Shown: in pieces, positions 724-14,863 of the stretch
Numbering within the stretch: the stretch's first letter is position 1
How the letters are laid out: each line of letters opens with the position of its first letter
NCBI GenBank assembly: GCA_025349965.1
Contig: CP075337.1
Span: forward strand, 420,001 to 452,000
Reading direction: 5' to 3'
Length of the DNA stretch: 32,000 nucleotides
From: Candidatus Saccharimonadota bacterium
GTDB lineage: Bacteria; Patescibacteriota; Saccharimonadia; Saccharimonadales; Saccharimonadaceae
Translations under genes and position numbers: made by a program
The notes under the pieces: model-generated
What the model saw: only the letters and a program-made list of their open reading frames with translations
Databases searched by the model: none
What the model was told of the DNA's origin: nothing

Positions 724-740
724 TTGCTATAGAACCATAT

Positions 741-770
741 AAAAACACCCTCGTAATTGAGGGTGTTTTT
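741..770. terminator. Bidirectional intrinsic terminator between convergent rplA and the 790..1611 gene
   Basis: Perfect inverted repeat AAAAACACCCTC / GAGGGTGTTTTT with a 6-nt loop. A and T tracts sit on either side. Confidence 0.75.
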
Positions 771-789
771 ATTAGTGCAATTTGTACGT

Positions 790-1611
790 TTAATCTATAT
801 AGAGAGAGGTGCCATTTTCGGTAAGAACGGCTTTTTTCGCCGCAGTAACTGCAAGAGCATCAATATCAACAGAAACAGTCGGCTCCGTATTGATTTGAGA
901 AATTTCATGCTTCCTAAGGTGCTGTTCCGCTCCTGCGACGATGGTATTGCGATCGTTTGTGTCCACATTTTCCGCATCTTGCTTCCATTGTGCCTTTAGA
1001 TCTACCGCCGAACGCTGTGCATCGCTTGCCACCTGGGTGGCAACACTTTCAACAGAGGTAATAAAACCGCCAGAAAATACAGGGGCGCCATCTCGTAGAA
1101 CCATAGCACTTGATATAAGCTTTGTAAGACGGTCTGCAGTCTGCCTATTCGCACTACTTACCGCTTCAAAATTTTCAGCAAGTTGGGTAAGTTCATCTCT
1201 TTCCCTGACAAGACTCTCGCGAGTAACTCCATCAGGGGTTGCGAGGATCTTCTGTGCAACTTTTTCAGCTTTCTCTTCTAGAAAGAGCGCGCGGGTGAGT
1301 AATGCATTTTGCTGCTCCTCTTGGCTGTACATATCTCGCATTTCGCGTATTTTAAATAGCGTACGCTCTGCGGCAAGTTGAATATCGGGTTCGTCTTTTT
1401 CTTTAAGAAAATCTCCCATCAAAGAGTCCTGAATCGTACTCTCAATAAGCATTCGCGAACCCTGTAAGTTATCTGCGAGTTGGTTTGCAACGACCTCTTG
1501 TTCGCGGGTAAAGCGCTTTTTAGGTTCCACAGTGAAGGTTTCGGCAAAGAGTGTTTTATGCAGACCGTTTTCCGTATCGGAAGAAGATTGTTCGCGTATC
1601 AAGGTTTCCAT
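790..1611 (-). CDS. Hypothetical coiled-coil protein (273 aa)
   Basis: Long ORF rich in E/K/Q/L heptad-like sequence, with no signal peptide or TM segment. It is convergent with rplA and shares the terminator. I recognise no family. Confidence 0.6.
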   Translation of the reverse strand: METLIREQSSSDTENGLHKTLFAETFTVEPKKRFTREQEVVANQLADNLQGSRMLIESTIQDSLMGDFLKEKDEPDIQLAAERTLFKIREMRDMYSQEEQQNALLTRALFLEEKAEKVAQKILATPDGVTRESLVRERDELTQLAENFEAVSSANRQTADRLTKLISSAMVLRDGAPVFSGGFITSVESVATQVASDAQRSAVDLKAQWKQDAENVDTNDRNTIVAGAEQHLRKHEISQINTEPTVSVDIDALAVTAAKKAVLTENGTSLYID

Positions 1612-1741
1612 CGCAGTGTTTCCTTTTTTGTTTTAGCGCTTGATGCCACTAGTTTAACATGAGCAGTAACCCCACGGCAATACCATTTATGCTATTTTCT
1701 TTTTTATTTTCTTGACGAGGTGTCGAAAAGGTGGTCTTTTG

Positions 1742-1750
1742 TGGTACAAT
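1742..1750 (+). promoter_or_regulatory. Extended -10 promoter TGGTACAAT upstream of thyA
   Basis: TGnTACAAT lies 50 nt upstream of the thyA ATG. The TTGACG at 1712-1717 is 27 nt away, too far to serve as a -35. Confidence 0.4.
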
Positions 1751-1799
1751 GAATGCTAGGTGGCGCGCTAACGGAGTGCGCCTTGTTCATTGGAGAGAA

Positions 1800-2741
1800 A
1801 TGTCAGAAAACACAGGGGCGACGGACGAGATTCCGACGCCGTACGAGGATCTTCTTGTGGAGATCATGGACACGGGAAATGAGCGTGGTGACCGAACCGG
1901 CACGGGCACGAAGAGCTTGTTTGGCAAGCAGGTTCGTTATGACCTGTCCGAGGGGTATCCACTCCTCACGACCAAGAAGGTCTACTTCAAGAAGATGGCA
2001 ACAGAGCTGGTGTGGTTCCTTCGGGGCGACACCAACATTCGTTACCTTCTGGAGCGTGATGTTCACTTCTGGAGTGAGTGGGCCTACAAGGAATACCTGC
2101 TGTCAACAGATCAGGCAGTTCCTGAGTCCAGCTCGGATGAGTGGAAGCAGGGGATGCGTGAGTTCGAGCAGCGTATCGTGGCGGATGGTGAGTTCGCTGC
2201 CACGTACGGCAACCTCGGCCAGGTCTACGGTGCGCAGTGGCGCAAGTGGCAGACGACGACGGGTGAGACGATTGATCAGATTGAAGATGTTATCAACGAG
2301 ATCAAGACAAGTCCGGAGTCTCGTCGCCTCGTGGTGACGGCATGGAACCCGGAGTTCGTTCCGACGAGCGCCCTTCCGCCCTGCCACGTGCTGTTCCAGT
2401 TCTACGTAGCGAATGGGCGGCTTTCCTGCCACCTGTACCAGCGCAGTGCGGACATGTTCCTGGGCGTGCCGTTCAACATCGCCAGCTACGCGCTGTTGAC
2501 GATGATGATCGCTCAGCAGACAGACTTGGAGCCGGGAGAGCTGGTGATGACGTTCGGCGACGGACACATCTACAGCAACCACTTCGACCAGGTGCGTCAG
2601 CAGCTCGGTAATGAGCCCCGTCCATACCCGACGCTGCGGTTCGCGCGTAAGCCCGAGAGCATCTCTGACTACGACGTTTCCGACTTTATCGTCGAGAACT
2701 ACGAGAGTCACGAGCACATCTCGGCGCCGATCGCCGTCTAA
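1800..2741 (+). CDS. thyA: Thymidylate synthase ThyA, long form (313 aa)
   Basis: Motifs RTGTGT, LPPCH, [21 protein letters not shown] and DxHIY. The ATG at 1800 follows GGAGAG at 1792-1797. The listed ORF start at 1731 is an unsupported N-terminal extension. Sampled lines are about 63-65% GC. Confidence 0.95.
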
Positions 2742-2756
2742 GGTGAACACCTACCG

Positions 2757-2838
2757 TGTGGCTGGCTTCTTTTTGGGTAAAACCGAAGAAGCCAGCCACA
2801 CCACTCAATCTTTATCACCCCGAGAGGGTGTTTTTTAT
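2757..2838 (+). terminator. Two hairpins downstream of thyA
   Basis: A 15-bp stem TGTGGCTGGCTTCTT / AAGAAGCCAGCCACA spans 2757-2800 and has no U tract. It is followed by CACCC-cgaga-GGGTG plus T6 at 2816-2836, which overlaps the folA stop codon. Confidence 0.55.
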
Positions 2839-3335
2839 TTTGTACCCCTCCGTAGGTAGGTGGTGAACGCGTAATTAAACTTATTACGTGCGTCTGCGGA
2901 ATGCGCCTCGCGCTGTACTATTTCCCACTCATCTAAATTGATCATTGGAAAATAGGTGTCAGCATCGTTAATCGTCGTGTCTATCTCTGTTGCATCAATT
3001 CTGTCTACATAGGGAAGCGCCTCTTTGTAAAGTTGCCCACCGCCAATAATAAACGGTTCGTATTGTGCTTGTTCAAGCGCTTCTTCCAAGCTATGCGCCA
3101 CCAGAGCCCCTTCGATAGCTTTCTGCGACAATGACACGACGATATTCTCTCTATCCCGAAGTGGTCTAGAGGCTTCTGGCAGAGACTCGAAGGTTTTTCG
3201 CCCCATAATTACCGATTCGCCCCACGTAAGTTCTCTGAAATGTTGCATATCAGCCGGCAAAGCGCCCATCCAAGGGATATCGCCGTTTCTTCCGACGGCG
3301 CGATTTCTATCATAAGCAACAACAAGCCGATTCAT
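2835..3335 (-). CDS. folA: Dihydrofolate reductase (166 aa)
   Basis: The N-terminus AYDRNRAVGRNGDIPW and the motifs VIMGRKTFESLP and IIGGGQLY are typical of DHFR. It is convergent with thyA. Confidence 0.9.
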   Translation of the reverse strand: MNRLVVAYDRNRAVGRNGDIPWMGALPADMQHFRELTWGESVIMGRKTFESLPEASRPLRDRENIVVSLSQKAIEGALVAHSLEEALEQAQYEPFIIGGGQLYKEALPYVDRIDATEIDTTINDADTYFPMINLDEWEIVQREAHSADARNKFNYAFTTYLRRGTK

Positions 3336-3368
3336 ATCTTAAGCTTACCATCCTTTCGCTCCACCGTA

Positions 3369-3377
3369 TGCTACAAT
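3369..3377 (+). promoter_or_regulatory. Extended -10 promoter TGCTACAAT for the dcd-like gene
   Basis: TGnTACAAT lies 47 nt upstream of the ATG at 3424, whose SD is AGGGGAG. No good -35 is present. Confidence 0.4.
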
Positions 3378-3423
3378 AGAGAAAATATGAACTGCTGGGT
3401 GGGCAGTAAACAGGGGAGTATCT

Positions 3424-4146
3424 ATGCAGACTGGGGTGTATAGCAACACGCAAATCAAAGAGGCTATTGAGGCTGGTCAGATTGTTTTTCATCCATATCA
3501 GCCAGAGCACATCAACGGTAGTAGTGTTGATGTTACGCTTGGCCAGTGGTTCTTCCGAACCGATCGCAAGAGCCCTGTTAGTGTCTATAACCCCTTTGAT
3601 AAAGACGAGGTAGATCACTACTTCGGTGAGCCGCAAAAAGCTATTTCCCACAAAGAATGGTGCAAGCAGACCGGCAACGAACCGCTTGCAAATATTCCCG
3701 AAGACCACCCCGTTATTGTTCTAGAACCAGGCGAGCGCATTCTTGCACACACGCAAGAGTTTATCGGCATCCTTCCTCCAGGTACGACAAGCATGCAATC
3801 TCGGAGTACATGGGGACGTAATGGCGTTGCCGTCTGTTTTGACGCTGGCTGGGGTGATCCTGGCTACATTAACCGTTGGACAATGGAAATCTATAATCTT
3901 AATCAGCGGCACAGTGTTGTGCTGCCGGTAGGAGAACGCATCGCGCAAATCGTCTTTATGCATACCGGGGAGGTTGAGGGAAGCTACGATAATCTCAGCG
4001 GAAAATACGCTTCAGGGACCAACCTAGAGAACCTGATTGCTTCATGGGAACCACAACAAATGCTTCCACGAGCTTGGAAGGACCAGCGTAGTACGCCCCT
4101 TATTGTGACGAAGTGGGAAGATGACCCCCGCATTGAGCGCGCATAG
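3424..4146 (+). CDS. dcd: dCTP deaminase / dUTPase-superfamily protein (240 aa)
   Basis: The N-terminus (IKEAIEAGQI..., NGSSVDVTLG) and the core (RSTWGRNGV, GWGDPGY, ERIAQIVF) match the Dcd/dUTPase fold. It is longer than a typical Dcd of about 190 aa. Confidence 0.75.
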   Translation: MQTGVYSNTQIKEAIEAGQIVFHPYQPEHINGSSVDVTLGQWFFRTDRKSPVSVYNPFDKDEVDHYFGEPQKAISHKEWCKQTGNEPLANIPEDHPVIVLEPGERILAHTQEFIGILPPGTTSMQSRSTWGRNGVAVCFDAGWGDPGYINRWTMEIYNLNQRHSVVLPVGERIAQIVFMHTGEVEGSYDNLSGKYASGTNLENLIASWEPQQMLPRAWKDQRSTPLIVTKWEDDPRIERA

Positions 4147-5187
4147 CTAATTATTGTTTGAGTTGAAAAAGGCAATGCCGTCATCGGTATCAGGTGTACG
4201 GAAGGCAACGCTCGCAAGCCGCCTTGCAGCTAGTGAAGGCATGTTAAGGGGTGTTTTTTCTGTGTAGCAGAATAAGGTGGTGGATTCCGGCACAACAAAT
4301 GGCTCGGTCGCGTCAGTCTGTACGGTACGTTCAATAAACCCACGGCATCGCGTGTCAGAAATAAGTTCTTCAAACCGCTCATCACTTGTATTATCCCAAT
4401 AAAACGGCTTTTTTGGATTAGCTTTTGTTGCTTCGGCTGCCGCAACTTGCATTGCTTCGAGAATATCACGCGGGAATCCCGATGCTTCGTCCACGCGATA
4501 AGCGGCAACCTGTCGTTCAACAACACGAATAGTTTCCCCTTCGGCTTTTGGAATAAAGCCAAAGTCGTGCTTATAACGAACGATAAATCCGGTAATCCGC
4601 TGCTCGCCACCCTCTAATCTCTCGACATGAGGTGAGATTTTAACGCGACGATAGGCATTCTCGATGGGCTCAATCACTCCGCCGCGCTTAACGATTTCTG
4701 CGGCTGCATCAAGTCGCATTTTTGAAACATGCTCAATACGTTGCCAGTAGGGGTGCGTGACACGGCCAACTTCAAGCCCGCCATCAAGGTCAGTGAAAAG
4801 GGCTACGTCAAACACATCACCGGTTTCACCAAAGCCCGCCTCAACAAGCTGCACAATAGGCTCAAGAGATTCATCAAGACAAGGGTGAGACTGCCGCCAT
4901 TTCGCAAAGTTCTCATAATTAATCATACGACGACGCTCAACGTTAATGTAGTAATCATCAACTAAGAGTTGCTGGAATTCATGAGGTACATTAAGATCCT
5001 CTGGTGGGTGCTCGAATAACTTCGCAAATTCATCCTTAATAAGGGCCTGTCGATCTTTGATCTGCTCGTTAACATACGGATTCGCGGGCATTGCGCTATA
5101 GTGGCGGTCGTGAAGGGCGCCGCTAAAGGGCTCTGAAAACTCAGAAGGACACTCTTGACGGAGTGATAATTGTTCGGCCTCTGTCAT
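4147..5187 (-). CDS. Hypothetical protein (346 aa from the ATG at 5187)
   Basis: Long ORF of backbone GC content with no recognisable motif. The ATG at 5187 lies 10 nt downstream of TGATATAAT. The GTG at 5232 would sit inside the upstream gene's terminator hairpin. Its stop codon directly abuts the dcd stop codon. Confidence 0.6.
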   Translation of the reverse strand: MTEAEQLSLRQECPSEFSEPFSGALHDRHYSAMPANPYVNEQIKDRQALIKDEFAKLFEHPPEDLNVPHEFQQLLVDDYYINVERRRMINYENFAKWRQSHPCLDESLEPIVQLVEAGFGETGDVFDVALFTDLDGGLEVGRVTHPYWQRIEHVSKMRLDAAAEIVKRGGVIEPIENAYRRVKISPHVERLEGGEQRITGFIVRYKHDFGFIPKAEGETIRVVERQVAAYRVDEASGFPRDILEAMQVAAAEATKANPKKPFYWDNTSDERFEELISDTRCRGFIERTVQTDATEPFVVPESTTLFCYTEKTPLNMPSLAARRLASVAFRTPDTDDGIAFFNSNNN

Positions 5188-5197
5188 ACTTTTAATA

Positions 5198-5206
5198 ATT
5201 ATATCA
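5198..5206 (-). promoter_or_regulatory. Extended -10 promoter TGATATAAT
   Basis: On the minus strand the sequence reads TGATATAAT-tattaaaagt-ATG. Confidence 0.4.
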
Positions 5207-5228
5207 GATTTTTGTAAAAAAGTAAATG

Positions 5229-5288
5229 CCACCCCCTCGAGGGTGGCTGGGGGTGGCCTGGAGCAATTAAGCTCTGACAGGCCACCCC
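5229..5288 (-). terminator. Tandem hairpin terminator for the 5295..5642 gene
   Basis: An 11-bp stem GGGGTGGCCTG / CAGGCCACCCC spans 5250-5288. A second hairpin CCACCC / GGGTGG spans 5229-5246. On the minus strand a U-rich run (CATTTACTTTTTT) follows. Confidence 0.55.
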
Positions 5289-5294
5289 ATGACG

Positions 5295-5642
5295 TCAGGG
5301 AAGGCGAATACCAAGGACGTGCAGATTTCTTCGTATAGAGTTCGCAGTCGGAGGGAGCGCAGCCAAGATATCCGCGTATGCTCCGCCCATGTGGCGCGCC
5401 CCGACGATGTCACGCACCTTATTCAGCACCTCGACCACCGTCGAGCCCATGCGTCCACCATGAAGATCATTCATAGTGTTATAGATATCCATCTTGAGAC
5501 GAGCCATCTCATCTGGATTCATCGGACTCGCCGCCACGATACGAACGAAGTGGTCGATACTCCCGATAGCCGCTTCTCCGTAGCGGGCGATGTAGACATC
5601 TACATCCCCTGCGACGTTCGCACTTTTAACTTTTAGAACCAT
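5295..5642 (-). CDS. Hypothetical protein, high-GC orphan (115 aa)
   Basis: The ATG at 5642 is preceded by AAAAGGAGAACCC and terminator hairpins lie downstream. A sampled line is about 65% GC. The antisense ORF 5289..5636 looks like a high-GC artefact. Confidence 0.55.
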   Translation of the reverse strand: MVLKVKSANVAGDVDVYIARYGEAAIGSIDHFVRIVAASPMNPDEMARLKMDIYNTMNDLHGGRMGSTVVEVLNKVRDIVGARHMGGAYADILAALPPTANSIRRNLHVLGIRLP

Positions 5643-5746
5643 GGGTTCTCCTTTTCTCGAAATGTACAACTTATCTCTAAGTACTTGCTATAGTACAGCA
5701 TCTTATTATTTTTTGTCCATCAGGAGGTGCGTGTCGTGGTGAAGCC

Positions 5747-5775
5747 TTGACTTTTTCACAACGTTTCAGTATACT
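5747..5775 (+). promoter_or_regulatory. Sigma-70-type promoter of the rplJL operon
   Basis: TTGACT (5747-5752), 17-nt spacer, TATACT (5770-5775). Confidence 0.65.
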
Positions 5776-5781
5776 CTTTGA

Positions 5782-5987
5782 TAGACATACCAAAGACAGT
5801 AGCTGTGATGTACATCACTTAATCCGCTACCGAGGAACATGTGAGACAAACACACATTTCTACGTCTTTGGCAGTGCGAGAACCAAAGACGTTTTTTAAT
5901 TCTTAAAAAAACACTGCGGGTACTGCCATGTGTCGAACATTAACAGTTTGGTCAAATAGAGAACTAACAGAAACCAAGGAGATTTTT
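5782..5987 (+). promoter_or_regulatory. L10 (rplJ) leader with terminator/antiterminator
   Basis: About 205-nt leader between the promoter and rplJ. ACCAAAGAC occurs twice, at 5789-5797 and 5882-5890. Both copies are complementary to GTCTTTGG at 5864-5871, which gives mutually exclusive pairings. Confidence 0.6.
5862..5897 (+). terminator. Attenuator terminator inside the L10 leader
   Basis: 10-bp stem ACGTCTTTGG / CCAAAGACGT with an 11-nt loop, followed by T6. Confidence 0.7.
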
Positions 5988-6512
5988 ATGGCAATTAGTC
6001 GCGATAAAAAGAACACATTGGTTGCTGAGCTAACTGAGCTTCTTTCAAGTGCAAAAACAACTGCATTCGCGGCATATCAGGGACTTACTGTTGCTGATAT
6101 CCAAGAACTCCGCGCAACCGCACGTGAGGCAGGTGTTACCATCAAGGTGGTAAAGAACCGTTTGGTTCGTGTTGCACTCTCTGGAATCGACGCTTATAAA
6201 GATGTCGATACTTCTTCACTCAACGGTCAGCTGATTTACGCAGCAAGTGCCGAAGATGAAGTAGTACCAGCTAAGGTGCTAAACGATTTCGCTAAGAAGA
6301 ACCCTATGCTTGTTGTTGCTGGTGGTCTTTCACTCGAAAGTGGTCTTATGACTGCTGACGAAGTAAAAGCACTTGCATCACTTCCAAGCAAGGATCAGCT
6401 TATTGGCGAAGTTATTGCTCAATTGCTTTCACCTGTCAACGATGTTACCAACGCGCTTTCGGGCAACTTGCACGCATTGCTTGATGGCGTTGAAGCTAAA
6501 GCAACCAGTTAA
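5988..6512 (+). CDS. rplJ: 50S ribosomal protein L10 (174 aa)
   Basis: The ATG at 5988 follows AAGGAG. The sequence MAISRDKKN..., GLTVADIQELR is typical of L10. The ORF start at 5928 is a spurious extension. Confidence 0.95.
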   Translation: MAISRDKKNTLVAELTELLSSAKTTAFAAYQGLTVADIQELRATAREAGVTIKVVKNRLVRVALSGIDAYKDVDTSSLNGQLIYAASAEDEVVPAKVLNDFAKKNPMLVVAGGLSLESGLMTADEVKALASLPSKDQLIGEVIAQLLSPVNDVTNALSGNLHALLDGVEAKATS

Positions 6513-6601
6513 TTTTCTTTCACTTTTTAGTGAACTCGCACCCATCAGGGTGCAAACCCGGTGATATTTCACCACAATTTAAGATTTAAAAGGAGGCTAT
6601 C

Positions 6602-6979
6602 ATGGCTGATCTAAAGAAATTTGCGGAGACTCTTGTTGGTCTTACCGTACTTGAGGTAAACGAACTCAAGACTATCCTAAAAGACGAATACGGCATTGAG
6701 CCAGCTGCTGCAGCTGCTGTTGCTGTTGCTGCACCTGCTGAAGGCGGTGCTGCTGCTGAAGAAAGCAAGTCTGAATTCACTATCGTTCTTAAGGACGCTG
6801 GTGCTCAGAAGGTTGCTGTAATCAAGGCTGTTAAGGACATTACTGGTCTTGGTCTTGGTGAAGCAAAGGCTATCGTTGATGGCGCACCTGCAGACGTTAA
6901 GGCTAACGTACCTGCTGAAGAAGCTGAAGCAGCTAAGAAGACTCTTGAAGAAGCTGGCGCTAGCGTTGAGCTTAAGTAA
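6602..6979 (+). CDS. rplL: 50S ribosomal protein L7/L12 (125 aa)
   Basis: SD AAAGGAGG. The protein has an Ala-rich hinge and the C-terminal domain [27 protein letters not shown]. Confidence 0.97.
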
Positions 6980-7031
6980 TTCTAAGTTAATTACTATTTA
7001 AGATTCATTCACTCTATTTGACGAACTGTTC

Positions 7032-7067
7032 AAAAACCGCCTGTTTTCTGGGCGGTTTTTTGTTTTT
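7032..7067 (+). terminator. rplL intrinsic terminator
   Basis: AAAAACCGCC-tgttttctg-GGCGGTTTTTTGTTTTT. Confidence 0.8.
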
Positions 7068-7117
7068 GGCTTAAATAGACTATTATAAATAAGATACAAC
7101 TTATGTTTGGAGGGCAC

Positions 7118-8491
7118 ATGCGTAAAACTTCACTGCAAGGATTTACCATCGTCGAGCTTTTAATTGTTATTGTTGTTATTGCAGTTCTTGCAACCATAAC
7201 AATCGTCTCCTATAACGGCATTCAAGTACAAGCACATACAAGCGCTCTTAAGAGTGATGCTCGTACAGCTATGTCCTTTATGGAAACAGACAGGGTAACA
7301 AGAGGAGCCTACACCACCGACCCAAATATGCTCAACGCCGGAAGTGGCCTACCGGTAAATTCAGATCGAAGCTTTGCCTTCTATAGCGACGGTACGGCAT
7401 ACTGTATCTCAGTACATTCAACTCGAGTCAGTACAACATTTTATGTCTCGAATGAACAACCATCTCCCAAAGAAGGCCTATGTCCTCAAGATAGTGGCGC
7501 TAGTGTAGCTTCTCTTGCAGGAAACGGTTCGCTCGGGTATGCAAACGGTAGCGGTGAAGCGGCTGTACTCGCATCCCCAGTGGCCCTTTCATCTAGCTCT
7601 GGGAACGTTCTTTATTTCACTGATTCAAGCACTTCGCGCGTGCGACAAGTCACTACGGCCGGCGTCGTGTCAACGATTGCGGGAAATGGCCCAACGGGCA
7701 CCACAGAGGGTGTCGGCAATGCGGCGCTCTTCAATTGGCCGCAGGCAGTGACTATCGGGTTTAACGGGCATCTCTACGTTGCCGATTCAAACAATCAACG
7801 CATCAGAACAGTTCCTCTTAATAACACATCAACGTCTGTTTTTGCAGGCCTCACGGGGACTTCAACAACAACTGGATTCGCAGAGGGGACTGGCACCGCG
7901 GCACGTTTCAACGTACCTCGTGGAATTGCATTTGACTCAAATAATAATCTACTCTACGTAGCTGATTCGCAAAATAACCGAGTTCGTAGAATAACCGCAG
8001 GGCAGGTTGTCGACACCCTTGCGGGGCAGTCCGGCGGAGGCTTTGTCGACAATACAACAGGTACGCTTGCACAGTTCAACTATCCACAGGGCCTTGCAGT
8101 GAGCACCAACGGCACGATTTACGTCGCGGATACGAACAATCATAGAATTCGCATGATAACACCATCTGGAAGTGTATCGACACTAGCGGGCGGACTACAG
8201 GGCAATGTAGATAATGATGGTACTGCGGCACGTTTTAACAAGCCGAGCGCCGTAGCAGTATCTGCAAACGGTACGGTATATGTAACCGACACCGACAACC
8301 ATAGTATTCGCAAAATTACACCCGCTGGAAAGGTTTCTACAATAGCAGGTAACGGTATGGCAGGATACGCTAATGGAAACGGGAGTGATGCACGCTTCAA
8401 TGCTCCACGCGGCATTGCGCTTGGAAGCGACGGGCGTTTGTATGTAGCTGATACGGGTAATCATCGTATTCGAGTCCTTACGAATCTATAA
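7118..8491 (+). CDS. Modular type IV pilin / pseudopilin with a C-terminal six-bladed NHL beta-propeller (457 aa)
   Basis: The ATG at 7118 follows GGAGGG. The prepilin signal is MRKTSLQG|FTIVELLIVIVVIAVLA, with Phe at +1 and Glu at +5. A pilin globular head follows, with a Cys pair (YCISV...GLCP), then six NHL repeats. Confidence 0.85.
   Translation: MRKTSLQGFTIVELLIVIVVIAVLATITIVSYNGIQVQAHTSALKSDARTAMSFMETDRVTRGAYTTDPNMLNAGSGLPVNSDRSFAFYSDGTAYCISVHSTRVSTTFYVSNEQPSPKEGLCPQDSGASVASLAGNGSLGYANGSGEAAVLASPVALSSSSGNVLYFTDSSTSRVRQVTTAGVVSTIAGNGPTGTTEGVGNAALFNWPQAVTIGFNGHLYVADSNNQRIRTVPLNNTSTSVFAGLTGTSTTTGFAEGTGTAARFNVPRGIAFDSNNNLLYVADSQNNRVRRITAGQVVDTLAGQSGGGFVDNTTGTLAQFNYPQGLAVSTNGTIYVADTNNHRIRMITPSGSVSTLAGGLQGNVDNDGTAARFNKPSAVAVSANGTVYVTDTDNHSIRKITPAGKVSTIAGNGMAGYANGNGSDARFNAPRGIALGSDGRLYVADTGNHRIRVLTNL
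7506..8488 (+). repeat. Six tandem NHL-type repeats of about 55 aa (about 165 bp)
   Basis: Recurrent pattern (T/S)xAG...G.A.(A/L)RFN.P.G(I/V)A....G.LYVAD..N(H/Q)RIR.(I/V)T..G.VS. Blade ends read YVADSNNQRIR, YVADSQNNRVR, YVADTNNHRIR, YVTDTDNHSIR and YVADTGNHRIR. Confidence 0.8.
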
Positions 8492-8500
8492 ATGAGAGAA

Positions 8501-8528
8501 CCCCCGCCGACACAAAGGTCAACGGGGG
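8501..8528. terminator. Weak hairpin between the convergent pilin gene and the 8561..8998 gene
   Basis: CCCCCG / CGGGGG stem with a 16-nt loop. U tracts are poor on both strands. Confidence 0.35.
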
Positions 8529-8560
8529 CAATACCTCACAACAGAAAGGGCTAGGGGCGG

Positions 8561-8998
8561 CTAGTCTTCATCCCCTTGCATCTGGCGCATGAACTCTTCA
8601 AGTGTCATAGAGCTTTCGGGCATGCCCTTGACCACGTGGACGATTGCAACGTCCGACTGGTCGATGAAAGGGTAGTCGTTGAGCATCTTACCGATGCGCT
8701 TCAACGTATGGCTGTCGTAGATATCTCGGTGGGTATGCATGATAAGCAGCCCGAACGCATCCTTGGAGGGATCGTTCCTTTTGATGGAGTCACAAAACAA
8801 CTCCATAAAGGTAACGACGTTAATCTTGTGCTCATCCTGCTTAAGCGCGCGGATGGACGGATGGTGGGGGCGGTACACAACCGCTTCCCGGCCAATCACC
8901 TGGCATCCCTCGGTCTCTACCGGATGGACTTCAAGCGAGTAGTGGTGCCACTGGCTCAGCGCCGCCGGGACGATGGAGATGTAGACGATAAGCTTCAT
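8561..8998 (-). CDS. Hypothetical protein, elevated-GC orphan (145 aa)
   Basis: The ORF has its own TGCTATAAT promoter and an acidic C-terminus. It is about 53-63% GC by line. The antisense ORF 8576..9043 was judged spurious. Confidence 0.55.
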   Translation of the reverse strand: MKLIVYISIVPAALSQWHHYSLEVHPVETEGCQVIGREAVVYRPHHPSIRALKQDEHKINVVTFMELFCDSIKRNDPSKDAFGLLIMHTHRDIYDSHTLKRIGKMLNDYPFIDQSDVAIVHVVKGMPESSMTLEEFMRQMQGDED

Positions 8999-9050
8999 TG
9001 CTCTTCTTTCTGTAGAAATGTGAGGTGCATTACCGCAAGGTAATATTTAT

Positions 9051-9079
9051 ATTATAGCACAAAATGTTAAAATAAGCAA
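9051..9079 (-). promoter_or_regulatory. Promoter TTGCTT-N17-TGCTATAAT for the 8561..8998 gene
   Basis: On the minus strand: -35 TTGCTT (9079-9074), 17-nt spacer, extended -10 TGCTATAAT (9059-9051). The roughly 45-nt leader contains the hairpin ATTACC/GGTAAT at 9029-9044. Confidence 0.5.
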
Positions 9080-9151
9080 TATCAACACTCGCTGACATTA
9101 TTTACAACACATTGAAATTTAAATCTGTTACCTGTGTGGATAAGCGAAAGA

Positions 9152-9940
9152 TTATGTGTCTTTTGTAAGCCGTACACTCATGCCAAGGCCTTGAAATTTC
9201 CTCGTAACATAGACTGGCTGGCTTGGAGTGCTCAGCGTTGCATTGTAGTGATAGCCAAGATTATCAAACGCTTGTAGTTTTTCGGGGCTTTCAATACGGT
9301 TCACAATCACCCAATGAGCAAAAGCACCGCGCGCAATCTTAGAGTGAATCACCACGGGTTGCGGTTTTCCATCTTTGACCGTCAAAAATACGGGCGTAAT
9401 GACTTGAGCCCCGTCCATATATGGCAATACGGCCTTTGTATATTCTGGTACGGATAGATTAAGAATGATTCTGTTTTTTGGTAGCTGGGCGGCAATCGCA
9501 CCACCCCAGTATTCATAAAGATTTTGGATGGGTGCAGCGGGAAGTCTATACCCCATCTCAAGGCGATAGGGATGTACGTTATCAAGCGCACGCGCCACGC
9601 CGTATAAACCAGAAAGAATATAGAAGCATTCATGGGCATACTGGCGATCTTCTGTAGTAAAAGTACGCGCCTGAAGCCCGCTGTACATGTCGCCCAAGAA
9701 TGCATCAATTGCAGGAAGGGTGGAGCGGCGCTCTTGCCATTCCCCAAAAAGGGTCTGTGTCTTCTCAGCCAATGCAGGTGATATTTTCATTCCCCCTGAA
9801 AGCTCCTCTCCTGACAGCTTCCTCAAATGCGACACAAGCTCAACGGCACGCGTAAGAAGGGGCGGCTCGCTATAGGTGCGTAGTGATGCCTCGCTACTGG
9901 TGCGCATTGTTTTTGAAGAGTGAAAGAGAATAGTAAACAC
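9152..9940 (-). CDS. yaaA: YaaA-family (UPF0246/DUF328) peroxide-stress protein (262 aa)
   Basis: Collinear with E. coli YaaA as I remember it (GDxYxGLQA, LSGLYGV.R.LD...PYRLEMG, ..YEYWG). GTG start lies 6 nt after the FKBP stop codon, so the two probably form an operon. Confidence 0.85.
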   Translation of the reverse strand: MFTILFHSSKTMRTSSEASLRTYSEPPLLTRAVELVSHLRKLSGEELSGGMKISPALAEKTQTLFGEWQERRSTLPAIDAFLGDMYSGLQARTFTTEDRQYAHECFYILSGLYGVARALDNVHPYRLEMGYRLPAAPIQNLYEYWGGAIAAQLPKNRIILNLSVPEYTKAVLPYMDGAQVITPVFLTVKDGKPQPVVIHSKIARGAFAHWVIVNRIESPEKLQAFDNLGYHYNATLSTPSQPVYVTRKFQGLGMSVRLTKDT

Positions 9941-9946
9941 GGGAAG

Positions 9947-10333
9947 TTACCCGGCAATCGCCACCAGTTCAATATCAAACACGAGGTCACTATTTGGCGG
10001 AATATTAGCCGCGGCGCGGACTGACCCATAGGCCATAGTAGAAGGGATAATAAGACGGCGAATACCACCAACGCGCATGCCGGGTACTCCCTGTGTCCAG
10101 CCAGCAATCACTTGATCCAGACCAAAACTAATTGGCTCGCCGAAATCACGGCTACTCTGGAAAATGGTTCCGTCTGCACATAATGCCCCTGTGTAATGCG
10201 CGGTGATGGTAGCGCCCGGTGCCACCGCTTCACCTGTACCAACAACGGTATCAATAATCTGTAATTCTGCGACCTTATTTTTGCCGAGTGGCATAAAGTC
10301 AACAAGTTGGGTCCCCTCAAGTCTCTCATTCAT
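9947..10333 (-). CDS. FKBP-type peptidyl-prolyl cis-trans isomerase (128 aa)
   Basis: FKBP core: HYTGAL.DGT.F.SSRD.G.P.SF.L..VI.GW.QG..GM.VGG.R.L.IP...AYG. Confidence 0.9.
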   Translation of the reverse strand: MNERLEGTQLVDFMPLGKNKVAELQIIDTVVGTGEAVAPGATITAHYTGALCADGTIFQSSRDFGEPISFGLDQVIAGWTQGVPGMRVGGIRRLIIPSTMAYGSVRAAANIPPNSDLVFDIELVAIAG

Positions 10334-10339
10334 ACTATT

Positions 10340-10348
10340 AGTATACCA
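10340..10348 (-). promoter_or_regulatory. TGGTATACT extended -10 ending 6 nt before the FKBP ATG (leaderless type)
   Basis: The minus strand reads GTGGTATACT-aatagt-ATG. Confidence 0.5.
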
Positions 10349-10363
10349 CTGTAAACTTTTCTA

Positions 10364-10394
10364 TTGACACCTATTTCATGCGGTAGGGTATACT
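10364..10394 (+). promoter_or_regulatory. Possible promoter TTGACA-N19-TATACT for a long leader and the 83-aa ORF
   Basis: Consensus -35 and a good -10, but the 19-nt spacer is long. Confidence 0.3.
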
Positions 10395-10621
10395 AGGTAT
10401 AGCTATGTAGGTACTGGTGGATACCTTTTCACTTACAAGCTTGCATATTTACATCTATAGATGTATTTACACCTCCATCGTGGTAAACAGATTGGCGTTC
10501 TATTCCAAAAGAAAGATAGAGCGGTCGCCGGTCCTATCCACCGCTGGATAAAAGAAGGGCTTGCCCTTCGTACACTCCAAAATCCGTTCGCTTAAACAAT
10601 ATCTTAGGCAAGGAGTGGTGT

Positions 10622-10873
10622 ATGACCAACACAACAATTAACAAAGAGGTAAGCGTAACACGACTCGGGTTCAAAAAGAACATGACCGTGTATCCGCAAC
10701 AAGTAGAATTTGACGGTTCAACCATCAATTTTATCGATGCGGGAATCAGTTGTATCGTTCGCTCAGGTGAACGCATTGCGCAGATTTTTACCCTTACCGA
10801 TGGTCGCTCAGAGTTTCGGCTCCGGAGTGACAACAATGGTGGAGCGTGGACGTTGCTTTCTATAAGCGCGTAA
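10622..10873 (+). CDS. Small hypothetical protein (83 aa)
   Basis: SD AAGGAG lies 7 nt upstream of the ATG and a terminator follows. The sequence looks beta-rich and matches no family I recognise. Confidence 0.55.
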   Translation: MTNTTINKEVSVTRLGFKKNMTVYPQQVEFDGSTINFIDAGISCIVRSGERIAQIFTLTDGRSEFRLRSDNNGGAWTLLSISA

Positions 10874-10888
10874 ATCCTCCCGACAGAG

Positions 10889-10916
10889 ACGCAGCACTTG
10901 CTGCGTTCTTTGTTTT
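10889..10916 (+). terminator. Intrinsic terminator after the 83-aa ORF
   Basis: 7-bp stem ACGCAGC / GCTGCGT with a 4-nt loop, then TCTTTGTTTT. Confidence 0.65.
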
Positions 10917-10978
10917 ATGATATGATATGTTAATTCTGCACACCCGTGCAGTAGATCCTTTACGAATAGTGGAAGAAG

Positions 10979-11851
10979 GTGATGTATGTGATACTCACGG
11001 ATGAAACCCTGGAACATCTTCAGGAGCAAAAACTCTTGGCGGAGACTCGATATAGCCTGCTACTCAGCAAAAAGGACGCTATCGAGACCCAATGCGAAGC
11101 CGCTCGCGAAGAAGTGGGCGAGGTGGGCAAAGTATTGAGCGAAGCAAGGGTGTCCCTTGAGCAGTGTGCACGGAATGTATGCGCCGCCCAGAGAGAAATG
11201 GGGCGTGAGCTTCTTCGCCTCCTCAAGCGAAGGGATGACATCGCAGAACGTGCGGTTGATCATGAGCGTATCATGCTTCAAGCTCGTCAACGAGGAGAAG
11301 TGGCCACCGAAACGTGGCACAGGCTCTGCGCGGAGGCCGCACTACACATTGGGCATCACTACACGGAACAGATTAAAGCCGTGAAGCAACGCACCCAGCG
11401 AGTGGTTGATGTCAGCAATGAAGCCGCCCAGGCCTTGAGTCGCGCTCGAAACGCTTTTTGCGAAGCAAGGACGAAGCATGCTCGACTCAACGAGTTACGC
11501 GAAGAGGCTCGTCAGCGTTTTTACGTAGCCGAGACCGCTCGAAAGAATGCCCGCAGGAAGTACAACAACCACGCAAAAGCACTCAAGCGACGCGAGCAAG
11601 AAAGAGTCAAGAAGCTTGCGCGCTGGGCTGGCGTGCCGGAGCGATACCTTCATCAAACGCTCATCGTGGAAGGTGAAGGTACTACGTTGCACTTCTATTT
11701 CGGCCCAACTATCGAAGTCGACAGACGACTACGCCCCAACCATGGACATATCGTGGTGCGCGGGAACGTAGTAGTCTATAGACGATTTCCAGGCCAAAAG
11801 AGGAGCCGGCGGCATGGCGATACACTCATCCTGCTCCCGAAACTAAAGTAA
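10979..11851 (+). CDS. Hypothetical Arg-rich coiled-coil protein with a small C-terminal beta domain (about 290 aa)
   Basis: About 220 aa of E/R/A/Q coiled coil, followed by GVPERYLHQTLIVEGEGTTLHFYFGP...NHGHIVVRGNVVVYRRFPGQ. The start is ambiguous (GTG 10979, ATG 10982 or GTG 10988) because GGAAGAAGG abuts 10979. About 52-60% GC. Confidence 0.6.
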   Translation: MMYVILTDETLEHLQEQKLLAETRYSLLLSKKDAIETQCEAAREEVGEVGKVLSEARVSLEQCARNVCAAQREMGRELLRLLKRRDDIAERAVDHERIMLQARQRGEVATETWHRLCAEAALHIGHHYTEQIKAVKQRTQRVVDVSNEAAQALSRARNAFCEARTKHARLNELREEARQRFYVAETARKNARRKYNNHAKALKRREQERVKKLARWAGVPERYLHQTLIVEGEGTTLHFYFGPTIEVDRRLRPNHGHIVVRGNVVVYRRFPGQKRSRRHGDTLILLPKLK

Positions 11852-11857
11852 AGGATT

Positions 11858-11889
11858 ACCCGTAGGCTAACATAGCTTGCGGGTTTTTC
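11858..11889 (+). terminator. Intrinsic terminator
   Basis: 10-bp stem ACCCGTAGGC / GCTTGCGGGT including two G-U pairs, a 7-nt loop, then T5. Confidence 0.6.
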
Positions 11890-11891
11890 CT

Positions 11892-11920
11892 TTGCAAAAA
11901 TATTACTTTTATAGTATAAT
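11892..11920 (+). promoter_or_regulatory. Promoter TTGCAA-N17-TATAAT of the surface-protein gene
   Basis: -35 at 11892-11897 and -10 at 11915-11920. The leader is about 105 nt and holds two small hairpins at roughly 11956-11995. Confidence 0.6.
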
Positions 11921-12031
11921 ATAGTTGAGTATTTAGAGTTGGGTACTTTTGTGTACGATTCTGCGCTTTTCGCGCTGTTTTTGAGCACGAAAAACCTTCT
12001 AGATACTTGCACCTACACAGATTGGGGAGAA

Positions 12032-14002
12032 ATGACCAAAGAAAAACAGGGAGGTAAGCGCAAGTTTATTGCACTTGCACTCCTGAGCGCGCTCGTGACG
12101 AGCTTCTTCGTCGTGAGCGGACCGGTAAGTGGAGCTGAGGCGCACACCGGAGATATCACGGCCACGGCTGCCTGCAATGCAGGCACCGGGGAGTACGATG
12201 TCACTTACACACTGACGCTGCGCAATACGCCGCCGGGTCAGACTGCCTCAACCATGTGGCGGATCGGTAGCCAGAACTTCCAGGGGACGCCCAACAGCGC
12301 CGCCGGGATGGACAAGGGGCCGATTTCCTCCGCAGGTAACGGACAGGTGGTCCTCGGATCACATTCGTTGCCGGGTACTACCGTTGGCAATGGTCCTTGG
12401 GTCTACGCCTACACGAAGTGGAGCGGTGGCTACGGCTACGGTTCTGACACTCGCGTCGAGGGCCTCAAGGGCAACTGCAGCAAGCCCTTCGACTGGAACT
12501 GGCAGTACGCCGCACCGACGTGCGATGGACTGACGGTGACCTACCCGGCAGACCTGCCGGCGGGTCAGGCGAACGATGTCAACATCCGTGTGAAGAACAT
12601 GGAGACGGGCGAAGTTCGTACCTTCAACTTCCATAACAACACCGGCACCTGGTCGGGTACGCAGACGTTTGACGTCAAGGCGCACCCGGACTGGCCCGGA
12701 TGGAAGTACTACGAGTTCCAGTGGACTCAAGTGGCAGGTACCAACTACCACTGGCAGGGGAGTCTCATTTGCGGAACGCAGAAGCCCCCGAAGCCCGAGC
12801 CCAAGGTGGAGCGGACTCCCAAGGAGACCGTTGACTGCGCGGCGAACATCGTCAACATCGTCATCACGGTGAAGACGAGCGACCCCGTATGGAACGAGGA
12901 GCTGTACGACTGGGCCTACGGTGAGCCGGTTGTGACGACAGAGATGTCGACACGTCCACTGACCGATGCCGAACGTCTGCAGTGTGCGGGTGACAAACCC
13001 GAACCGAAGGTTGACGTGAAGACGACGGAGAAGGTTTCCTGTGAGACCGAGCTCGTCACCATCACGAAGACCACTACCACAGAAGTGTACGTCCTGGACG
13101 GCACCAAGTGGGTTCTGGGCGAGCCTGATGTGAAGGTGGAAACGAGTGATCGTCCTGCCACCATTGAGGAGCTCAACAAGGCCGAGTGCCCGCCGGGCAC
13201 CGAGCCGCCCCCGCCCGTTCATGAAGTGGATGTGAAGACGTCGCTGGACTGCACCACCGAGACGGTGACGACGACCACGACGACAACGGACATCCTGTAC
13301 GTCTGGAACACGGAGACGCGTACCTACGTCCTGGGTAAACCCGACGTGAAGGTGGAGACGAGCACTCGCCCCGCCACTATCGAGGAGCTCAACAGCGCCG
13401 AATGTGACCCGACCACTCCTCCCGAGCCAAAGGTGAAGGAGGAAGTGACTACGGTCATTGACTGCGCCACTGAGACGGCGACGGACACGAAGGTGGTTAC
13501 GACCATCGATCCGGTCTGGAACGCGGAGACGCGTACCTGGGTGGATGGCGAGCCCAAGGTCGAGTCCACCGACACAGTGCGGCCGGCAACGGTTGACGAG
13601 TTGAACGGCGCCCCGTGCGACCCGTCCACTCCGCCGCCACCGGTCGTCAATGTTACCAGCAAGGAAGTGCTTGACTGCACGACCAAGAAGGTAACAACCT
13701 CGACCGATGTCGCCGAGTCGAAGCCGACTTGGGACGTTGACACCCGCACCTGGGTGTTTGGCGACCCCGTGGTCAAGACCAGTGTCACTCAGCGTGACGC
13801 AACAGCAGCAGAGGTGAAGACCTGCCCGGCGACGCCGAGCAAGAACACTCCAGTGCCGCCCAAGACCACCAAGTCCGGCCTTGCCGTGACTGGCGGCGAA
13901 ACCATACTGCCTCTCGTAGGTGGTGCTGCCGCGCTGATTCTCCTCGGCGCAACCCTGACGATCCTCGCGGTTCGTCGCCGTCGTCAGAACGCAGACGCGT
14001 AA
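12032..14002 (+). CDS. Cell-wall-anchored surface protein with an LAxTG sorting signal and five tandem domains (656 aa)
   Basis: The ATG at 12032 follows GGGGAGA. Signal peptide MTKEKQGGKRKFIALALLSALVTSFFVVSGPVSGAEA. The C-terminus is LAVTG (13880-13894) plus a hydrophobic helix and an RRRRQ tail. About 60% GC. The ORF start at 11939 is a spurious extension. Confidence 0.85.
   Translation: MTKEKQGGKRKFIALALLSALVTSFFVVSGPVSGAEAHTGDITATAACNAGTGEYDVTYTLTLRNTPPGQTASTMWRIGSQNFQGTPNSAAGMDKGPISSAGNGQVVLGSHSLPGTTVGNGPWVYAYTKWSGGYGYGSDTRVEGLKGNCSKPFDWNWQYAAPTCDGLTVTYPADLPAGQANDVNIRVKNMETGEVRTFNFHNNTGTWSGTQTFDVKAHPDWPGWKYYEFQWTQVAGTNYHWQGSLICGTQKPPKPEPKVERTPKETVDCAANIVNIVITVKTSDPVWNEELYDWAYGEPVVTTEMSTRPLTDAERLQCAGDKPEPKVDVKTTEKVSCETELVTITKTTTTEVYVLDGTKWVLGEPDVKVETSDRPATIEELNKAECPPGTEPPPPVHEVDVKTSLDCTTETVTTTTTTTDILYVWNTETRTYVLGKPDVKVETSTRPATIEELNSAECDPTTPPEPKVKEEVTTVIDCATETATDTKVVTTIDPVWNAETRTWVDGEPKVESTDTVRPATVDELNGAPCDPSTPPPPVVNVTSKEVLDCTTKKVTTSTDVAESKPTWDVDTRTWVFGDPVVKTSVTQRDATAAEVKTCPATPSKNTPVPPKTTKSGLAVTGGETILPLVGGAAALILLGATLTILAVRRRRQNADA
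12785..13845 (+). repeat. Five tandem repeats of about 210 bp (about 70 aa) inside the surface protein
   Basis: Each unit runs from a P(E/V)PKV-type linker, through (V/L/I)(D/S)C, ...(P/Y)(V/T)WN.ETRTWV.GEP.V....RPAT..ELN.AEC. PEPKV-encoding 15-mers lie at about 12794, 12998 and 13421. Confidence 0.8.
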
Positions 14003-14052
14003 GCGTTTCTGCCCCTGAAGACACCCTAGCCGGGTAGTCCGGTGCTTAGAGC

Positions 14053-14100
14053 CTCAACAGCCAGTTGAGTCGCTCGGCACTGGGCCGCCCGGCCTTTTAT
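14053..14100 (+). terminator. Weak hairpins and a T tract after the surface-protein gene
   Basis: CTCAAC / GTTGAG at 14053-14069, and GGCC-gccc-GGCC followed by TTTTATTTT at 14083-14103. Confidence 0.35.
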
Positions 14101-14163
14101 TTTGTGATTATTTTCCAAACACTAGTTTAGCGTTATGGCCCTTGCTGAGTACGCTACATTTTC

Positions 14164-14192
14164 TTGACATTTACTTCTCAAATTGCTATAAG
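14164..14192 (+). promoter_or_regulatory. Promoter TTGACA-N17-TATAAG
   Basis: Consensus -35 at 14164-14169 and -10 at 14187-14192, 50 nt upstream of the ATG at 14243. Confidence 0.55.
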
Positions 14193-14242
14193 TAAAGCTA
14201 ATACTATTTCAAAACACATACAGATAAGGAAATTGCGAGACC

Positions 14243-14761
14243 ATGTCTGATTTACCAGAAAAACAAGTCAAGCGTCTCCACGCACTCATTCAAGAGGCGG
14301 AGACAAACCTAGCGGCAGCCAAAGAGCTCCTTATTAGCATTGTTGGAGATGACGGTGCAGTTATCACTCCGCGTAGTTCAGCGAACGAAGATGTTGGCGG
14401 AAAGATTATCGAAGGCGTTTTTGACGGCCAGAAGATGATTGGCCCTGACGGCAAAGAGTACCCAGTACCGGCTAACTACGCCAGCAAGTCAAAGCTTGTG
14501 GAAGGCGATCTTCTTAAACTTACAATTGCCGACGACGGCAGCTTCATTTACAAGCAAATTGACCCAGTGCCACGTAACCAGATTATTGGTACGATGTCTC
14601 AGCATGACGGTGCGTACTACGTTGAAGCAAACGGGCGTGAATACCGCATCCTCCTTGCTAGCGTGACGTACTTCCGTATTAACATCGGTGATCAGGTAAC
14701 AATTATTGTTCCTGCAGATAACCCAGAGGCAACCTGGGCAGCCGTAGAAGCAGCACTCTAG
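14243..14761 (+). CDS. Hypothetical protein (172 aa), backbone GC
   Basis: SD AAGGAA. It has an N-terminal helix (KRLHALIQEAETNLAAAKELL) and a C-terminal beta-rich region. No family recognised. Confidence 0.65.
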   Translation: MSDLPEKQVKRLHALIQEAETNLAAAKELLISIVGDDGAVITPRSSANEDVGGKIIEGVFDGQKMIGPDGKEYPVPANYASKSKLVEGDLLKLTIADDGSFIYKQIDPVPRNQIIGTMSQHDGAYYVEANGREYRILLASVTYFRINIGDQVTIIVPADNPEATWAAVEAAL

Positions 14762-14763
14762 AT

Positions 14764-14792
14764 TTGCACTTTATAGCCTAAAGTGTTATAAT
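14764..14792 (+). promoter_or_regulatory. Promoter TTGCAC-N17-TGTTATAAT
   Basis: -35 at 14764-14769 and extended -10 at 14784-14792, immediately after the upstream stop codon. Confidence 0.55.
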
Positions 14793-14863
14793 ATAAGTAT
14801 GGTAGTAGTCGTGTGAATGCACGGCTACTATTGTATCTGTCCACTAGAGAAATGGAGTTCATC

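Follow-up and report, generated by a model that had tools for sequence, protein, structure and literature searches.

We have analyzed a stretch of 32,000 nucleotides (nt) from a Candidatus Saccharimonadota bacterium (assembly GCA_025349965.1, contig CP075337.1, positions 420,001 to 452,000 of the forward strand), which we call the window; coordinates are those of the window unless a different locus is named. Its plus strand contains, at 7118 to 8491, a gene coding for a protein of 457 amino acids, in which a type IV pilin module is fused to a six-bladed NHL beta-propeller. Judging by its sequence and predicted structure, it is best read as a genuine modular pilin of the type IV class, which combines a prepilin signal, a pilin fold, a disulfide pair, a short rigid linker and an NHL propeller. 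We consider it probable (about 0.7), by analogy with related systems, that this protein is an orphan, low-abundance minor pilin of Candidatus Saccharibacteria which displays a binding propeller.

The pilin module and its propeller

The open reading frame (ORF) spans 7103 to 8491 and contains two possible start codons in frame, at 7103 and 7118. The second one is preferred because it is preceded by a GGAGG sequence. The gene may be divided as follows:

7109..7113, plus strand: Shine-Dalgarno sequence GGAGG, 4 nt upstream of the ATG at 7118, read from the sequence
7118..7141, plus strand: leader peptide MRKTSLQG, residues 1-8, with predicted cleavage between G8 and F9 (TIGR02532, conservation, pilin alignments)
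7142..7303, plus strand: alpha-1 helix of the pilin module, residues 9-62, including the hydrophobic alpha-1N with Glu13 at +5 (model, conservation)
7304..7492, plus strand: globular pilin head, residues 63-125, with a small beta-sheet, C96 and C122, ending in the G-x-CPQD junction (model, conservation)
7493..8488, plus strand: six-bladed NHL beta-propeller, residues 126-457 (Pfam NHL, PDB sequence matches, model, Foldseek)

The N-terminus, MRKTSLQG followed by FTIVELLIVIVVIAVLATITIV, has the features of a class III signal, which the initial annotation called a textbook one: a short basic leader, Gly at -1, Phe at +1, Glu at +5 (E13) and a hydrophobic stretch of about 20 residues. The NCBIfam profile for prepilin signals, TIGR02532, is matched with 24.0 bits, above its cut-off of 16.3. 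In a sequence search of the PDB, the head matches Geobacter PilA (6e-8), Thermus PilA (6xxd, 6e-6, residues 9-101) and Streptococcus sanguinis PilE1 (4e-4), with F9 placed opposite the first residue of these solved, mature proteins. These positions are also conserved in a set of 139 sequences, formed by the window protein and 138 of the best 150 matches to its head (see below): G8 is found in at least 90% of them, F9 is nearly invariant and E13 is invariant. Gly, Ala, Ser and Thr make up 43% of the protein, which falls in the range given for exposed pilins (PMC11623550).

The AlphaFold2 model contains a helix at residues 11-62, with a predicted local distance difference test (pLDDT) of 92-96, and a sheet in the head formed by strands 84-90, 95-101 and 107-111 and a short strand at 118-119 (pLDDT 90-96). 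C96 and C122 are the only cysteines of the whole protein. They are invariant in four orthologues and conserved in at least 90% of the 139 relatives, and a disulfide predicted between them would staple the head. This agrees with the pilin head of about 120 amino acids with a C-terminal cysteine pair that had been proposed; the pilin module has about 115 residues. The linker (CPQDSGAS) is very short: Only about six residues follow C122 before the propeller is reached, with its first strand at residue 129. The junction block has a pLDDT of 94, and its CPQD is invariant in the four closest orthologues. In this respect the protein agrees with the modular pilins of Raynaud et al. (2021), which also have a short linker.

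The propeller matches the Pfam NHL family (PF01436) with 159.5 bits (E=4e-48), above its gathering score, in five scored stretches. Six blades may be placed at residues 129-179, 183-232, 240-293, 297-347, 352-400 and 405-455, approximately. The six repeats originally noted are therefore real. The statement that each of them ends in the NHL signature was slightly overstated: The strict motif YV[AT]D..N..[IV]R is found five times, at residues 220, 280, 335, 388 and 442, while in blade 1 it is degenerate (YFTDSSTSRVR, 166-176).

A first AlphaFold2 run, in which only four sequences covered the propeller, gave a confident pilin module with blades that did not close (pLDDT 74; Foldseek template modelling (TM) score 0.2-0.36, root mean square deviation (rmsd) about 18 Å). 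It was replaced by a second run on an alignment of 63 sequences, with a pLDDT of 95 and a predicted TM score of 0.89. In this second model, a pilin module formed by a helix and a sheet is followed by 24 strands arranged in six four-stranded blades, which form a closed propeller, in agreement with the architecture first suggested. Compared by Foldseek with solved six-bladed NHL domains, it gives TM scores of 0.80-0.88 (normalized by the target) and an rmsd of 1.6-3.3 Å, with 22-28% identity in the alignments. These domains include SOQ1 (7djj, 7djk), NHLRC2 (6g7w), Thin (6xg7), Pizza6, TRIM71 and TRIM2. By sequence, the PDB matches of the propeller range from TRIM71 (2e-56) down to Brat (about 1e-9), and also include teneurin, NHLRC2 and the sensor domain of Mycobacterium tuberculosis PknD.

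The best matches, both by sequence and by structure, are to NHL domains which bind ligands and are not catalytic, namely those of TRIM71, Thin, teneurin, SOQ1, NHLRC2 and the PknD sensor. They have the six-bladed fold and the repeat signature in common with the window protein, but none of them is attached to a pilin. Their ligands are RNA, proteins or unknown, and give no direct clue to the ligand of the window propeller.

A family of modular pilins

We have searched 1.84 billion cluster representatives with HMMER, using the head (residues 1-130) as a query. This search gives 13,014 matches at E<=1e-3 and 1,210 at E<=1e-10. Most of the best 150 matches are 300-520 residues long, and the match stops at the second cysteine. 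A Pfam scan of the set of 139 sequences described above gives the following distribution of domains:

N_methyl: 134 of 139 (at E<=0.001)
NHL: 27 of 139, window protein included
RCC1 propellers: 12 of 139
LRR_5: 8 of 139
CBM_4_9: 8 of 139
Fib_succ_major: 5 of 139
Laminin_G_3: 4 of 139

We therefore regard the head as a carrier module; among these 139 nearest relatives, the cargo recognized most often is NHL. A profile search with the head and the first blade adds discoidin (F5/8 type C), DUF1566-like modules and additional lectins, and finds cases in which one contig (0.7-0.95 Mb) carries several pilins of this type. The modules named in the scan of 139 sequences, and discoidin, are all of adhesion or carbohydrate-binding types. 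About 20 representatives, with 436-480 residues, align with the window protein over its full length, with 33-50% identity. The number of fusions is under-reported by our other homologue searches with short queries (130-185 amino acids), such as that with the head and the first blade, which listed nothing longer than about 330 amino acids and omitted the window protein itself. A scan of genome contigs for NHL-specific peptide patterns should not be taken as a survey of the fusion: It gives a single true orthologue, next to 79 NHL proteins of other phyla which are not pilins.

The initial annotation implied that this fusion was rare or undescribed, and this has to be abandoned. Apart from the abundance of NHL in the head family and the full-length clusters just mentioned, Dataset S1 of Raynaud et al. 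(2021) already includes one protein with IPR012902 and three copies of IPR001258 (NHL), and Dataset S2 includes NHL repeats within PilC/PilY1 architectures (PMC8179133). The architecture is therefore common and catalogued, though poorly annotated: Relatives are named as generic prepilin-type cleavage/methylation domain proteins, as 'serine/threonine-protein kinase' or, in many entries of the Joint Genome Institute (JGI), as 'sugar lactone lactonase YvrE'. Names, where given, are either generic or wrong.

Two other observations concern the head. A protein of 301 amino acids (P0460), annotated as 'type IV pilin protein' of Schaalia sp. JY-X169 and located on a 2.38-Mb contig, has the same head (37% identity, covering 67% of the query). 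Oral Saccharibacteria have Schaalia among their host genera. This case could correspond to transfer between host and epibiont, to contamination or to a wider distribution of the head. In addition, four or five pilin genes follow each other in tandem at 4828-10900 of locus L124 and at 9000-12850 of locus L136. They code for proteins of about 300-335 amino acids with the same alpha-1N, which suggests local duplication of modular pilins.

Selection and genomic setting

Three full-length orthologues (P0009, P0016 and P0039) have 64-72% identity with the window protein, and a fourth one (P0242) has 50%. Where the pilin is 71% identical, its housekeeping neighbours are 90-98% identical, so the pilin evolves faster, as surface proteins do. 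When the window gene is compared with three orthologues, the proportion of replacement differences (pN) is 0.21-0.34, while that of silent differences (pS) is about 0.8. Such a marked deficit of replacement differences relative to silent ones shows that the ORF did not arise by chance, and that the gene is under purifying selection. Selection is uneven along the protein. The alpha-1N (residues 9-36) is nearly frozen, with a replacement rate (dN) of 0.05 and a ratio of replacement to silent rates (dN/dS) of 0.02-0.04. The globular head is the fastest-evolving segment (dN 0.61, 42-45% identity) and the propeller is intermediate (dN 0.17-0.21, 77-79% identity), in both cases in orthologues with about 71% identity. 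Silent sites are saturated in these two segments, for which we give pN, pS and dN and no dN/dS.

The surroundings of the gene include the following features:

5928..6979, plus strand: rplJ (5928-6512) and rplL (6602-6979), directly upstream of the pilin gene (Pfam Ribosomal_L10, Ribosomal_L12)
7032..7060, plus strand: hairpin and T-run after rplL, similar to an intrinsic terminator (terminator scan; folds at -14.7 kcal/mol)
8499..8529: hairpin rich in G+C, located after the stop codon of the pilin gene (8489-8491) and before a convergent ORF of 145 amino acids, scored by the scan as a minus-strand terminator

The pilin gene begins 138 nt past the end of rplL. The order rplJ-rplL-pilin is also found in loci L001, L002, L003, L164 and L165, which include the orthologues P0009, P0016 and P0242. 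The hairpin at 7032-7060 is found in the same position in L001, L003 and L164, which makes four genomes including that of the window. Its stem shows compensatory changes: CCGCC/GGCGG, CCACTCC/GGGGTGG or TCACTCC/GGGGTGA. A conserved TATAAT-like box is visible downstream of this hairpin when the relatives are aligned; a sigma-70 scan found no promoter between the rplL terminator and the pilin start codon. Since the conserved hairpin and the TATAAT-like box separate the pilin gene from rplL, the gene probably forms its own transcription unit, apart from rplJL, and some read-through is possible. From its position, the hairpin at 8499-8529 may also end the pilin transcript of the plus strand.

The gene had been described as standing alone after rplL, with no pilB, pilC, pilM or pilN neighbours, and a Pfam scan of 27 ORFs in the window finds none of them. 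These ORFs include dnaX, dnaB, recR, cysS, a two-component system and ksgA, and about ten have no significant match. No other prepilin motif is found in a credible position in any frame of the window: The sole other match, near 21503 on the minus strand, lies 60 residues inside an ORF of 162 amino acids. It had also been remarked that the pilin gene occupies the place where rpoB normally follows rplL. This carries little weight and has no special meaning, because the rplKAJL-rpoBC cluster is already broken in this lineage between rplA and rplJ, and a conserved terminator follows rplL. In the region 19-6979, thyA, folA, dcd and two unknown ORFs lie between rplA (19-723) and rplJ-rplL. rpoB and rpoC are not in the window, and the same fragmented order of ribosomal protein genes is found in L001 and L003.

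The orphan state is a family trait, because full-length members with 35-43% identity (loci L084-L088) are also found among unrelated housekeeping genes: ksgA/metG/tatD; an HD-domain gene; a SurA-like gene and sodA; clpB/murT. A related protein, P0318, adjoins another small pilin gene (L166). A GspE-type ATPase is found within 10 kb at only one of about 90 pilin loci scanned. In locus L144, a pilin with 45% identity to the first 70 residues of the head, approximately, is part of a canonical PilB-PilC-pilins-PilM-PilO operon, in support of the head being that of a pilin; this operon contains PilB (T2SSE and MshEN, E=1e-125), PilC (T2SSF), three further small ORFs, PilM and PilO.

Some neighbouring genes may be described briefly. 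The convergent ORF of 145 amino acids (8561-8998, minus strand) has no family match. It has 26% identity with its positional counterpart in L003 and can barely be aligned with that of L001, where flanking genes are 70-98% identical. We have rejected it as a conserved partner of the pilin: It is homologous only in the closest relatives, where it is highly divergent, and the ORFs of about 144 amino acids found elsewhere are unrelated. An ORF of 687 amino acids (11939-14002, plus strand), with 60-62% G+C against about 45-55% in the rest of the window, has no Pfam match. It has an N-terminal signal-like segment, five or six repeats of about 55 amino acids (..DPVWNAETRTWV.GEP.V...RPAT..ELN.A.C) and a C-terminus with LAVTG, a hydrophobic stretch and RRRRQ, which resembles an LAxTG sortase signal; it may be a horizontally acquired surface protein anchored to the cell wall. 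In L164, beside the orthologue with 50% identity, the region 11603-15129 (minus strand) contains two minor-pilin-like genes (286 and 135 amino acids) and a protein of 759 amino acids with RCC1 and ricin-type lectin domains. A pilin with N_methyl and Laminin_G_3 is found upstream, near rplA.

Function and alternative readings

The proposed mechanism would start with the insertion of the prepilin in the membrane by its hydrophobic alpha-1N. A prepilin peptidase would then remove the eight-residue leader, and the pilin module would enter a type IV pilus through its alpha-1 helix, with Glu5. This module would act as a carrier for the 330-residue propeller, rigidly attached right after the second cysteine. 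The protein would be a low-abundance subunit, most likely placed at the pilus tip, because the propeller is too bulky to be present in every subunit. There the propeller would bind a ligand presented by the host cell surface, or by a different surface, and help the epibiont to attach.

The closest analogue comes from the same phylum. Nanosynbacter lyticus TM7x makes two type IV pili, as described by Grossman et al. (2024), and its minor pilin PilX2, which has an RCC1 propeller, is needed for host binding: Deletion of its gene lowers binding, with the same defect as in major-pilin and ATPase mutants (PMC11623550). In PilX2, as in the window protein, a complete beta-propeller comes after the N-terminal pilin module, and PilX2 has been proposed as a pilus adhesin, the role which we suggest here by analogy. 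The RCC1 propellers found in our set of 139 sequences correspond to this architecture. On the other hand, the propeller of PilX2 is seven-bladed RCC1 and not six-bladed NHL, PilX2 is reported to lack a predicted PilD signal, while the window protein has a canonical one, and it is encoded in a pilin locus together with the major pilin PilA2, while the window gene is an orphan. The window protein is thus not an orthologue of PilX2, although it may work like it. We should also note that orphan pilins, PilJ and PilK, are reported in the same paper, that type IV pili are 'nearly universally encoded' in Saccharibacteria (PMC11623550), and that most of the corresponding genes of S. epibionticum are class I essential (PMC10633639).

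A second comparison is with the modular pilins defined by Raynaud et al. (2021), who count 264 architectures in InterPro, show that S. sanguinis PilB presents a vWA module and argue for its display at the pilus tip (PMC8179133). Both PilB and PilC, which carries a lectin, consist of a small pilin module, a short loop and a bulky module, as the window protein does, and tip display and a role in adhesion are predicted for them, as we propose here. The modules are different, vWA or lectin in one case and NHL in the other, and so are the targets: eukaryotic proteins for these pilins, presumably a bacterial cell for an epibiont of the candidate phyla radiation (CPR). The NHL form is a single entry in that survey, while it is the most frequent recognizable module in the head family studied here. 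The PilY1/PilC tip adhesins of type IVa pili also place a beta-propeller at the pilus tip for adhesion. However, PilY1 reaches the pilus without being a pilin, by docking on minor pilins with its IPR008707 propeller, while the NHL propeller of the window protein is covalently fused to the pilin.

These analogies, with TM7x PilX2 and with S. sanguinis PilB, make a binding module displayed on a pilus the best-supported function, as the initial annotation suggested. The location in the pilus shaft which it offered as an alternative appears unlikely on steric grounds. Several points weigh against our reading. The Pfam N_methyl profile (PF07963) is matched with 20.8 bits, 0.4 under its gathering score of 21.2. 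The choice between tip and shaft is made only by steric reasoning, and the relative orientation of pilin module and propeller comes only from prediction. Our Pfam scan of the 27 ORFs in these 32 kb finds no T2SSE, T2SSF, PilM, PilN, PilO or peptidase A24. In the propeller, the lactonase-like SGL profile gives 48.5 bits, above its gathering score of 26.3. Our literature search found no paper describing a pilin with an NHL module.

Some of these points are also consistent with a surface-anchored protein which does not form part of a filament: Signal and head would only serve to bring the propeller out of the cell and keep it attached to the membrane, or to a short pseudopilus-like stub. The archaeal sugar-binding proteins of the Sulfolobus 'bindosome', which have class III signals, may be compared with such an arrangement. 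The gene is an orphan, no machinery is found within 32 kb, distant relatives are also placed among housekeeping genes and a GspE-type ATPase is very seldom found near the pilin loci scanned. The head matches the GspG pseudopilin of type II secretion systems weakly (27.6 bits, below the cut-off), and the very wide range of modules on a single head resembles a general display system. We nevertheless find this explanation unlikely. The full pilin fold, Glu5 and the disulfide pair are kept across the family, the low dN of alpha-1N is what would be expected for a subunit packed in a filament, and the analogue PilX2 behaves as a pilus component (PMC11623550).

The SGL match raises a different question, whether the propeller, on a pilus or elsewhere on the surface, might be an enzyme similar to SMP-30/gluconolactonase, Vgb-lyase or arylesterase, acting on the host envelope. 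There are also weaker Pfam matches to Vgb_lyase, Arylesterase and Phytase-like, the JGI name given to many homologues is that of a lactonase, and peptidase modules have been noted among modular pilins by Raynaud et al. (PMC8179133). The SGL match only covers profile positions 131-217 (87 of 246), however, and lies under a far stronger match to NHL, which we take to be a related propeller family. In the PDB, the closest structures, in sequence as well as in fold, are NHL domains which bind ligands and are not catalytic. A catalytic propeller seems improbable. Finally, a major structural subunit of a distinct, propeller-decorated filament would fit the short type IVa-like leader, the canonical head, the putative TATAAT-like -10 box and ribosome-binding site of its own and the conservation of the locus across orthologues with 50-72% identity, but it is hardly credible, as a 330-residue propeller on every subunit appears sterically implausible, following the modelling argument in PMC8179133, and the major pilins of Saccharibacteria, PilA1 and PilA2, are relatively small (PMC11623550).

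A more general suggestion may be made, which is only tentative. Saccharibacteria might use one conserved head, of about 115 residues and stapled by a disulfide, as a universal carrier, and the exchanged module (NHL, RCC1, LRR, CBM, discoidin or lectin) would set the host surfaces which are recognized. In this lineage, the NHL type would be kept in a housekeeping locus behind the rplJL terminator, where partial read-through from the strong ribosomal protein promoter could couple low-level expression of the adhesin to growth. Should this be true, the repertoire of modules in orphan pilins would predict host range.

No new principle is involved: Both modular pilins and a propeller-bearing pilin of Saccharibacteria have already been published. 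The architecture of this fusion is common in Saccharibacteria, it is already catalogued and it has a close analogue, PilX2, which has been studied experimentally. In any case, type IV pili and PilX2 are so far the main molecular handles on how ultrasmall CPR epibionts recognize and hold their host bacteria. Pilins with NHL propellers form a conserved but badly annotated family, whose many members share one carrier head. This family provides candidate adhesins for host recognition, together with a catalogue of modules, and illustrates the swapping of modules on a single pilin carrier.

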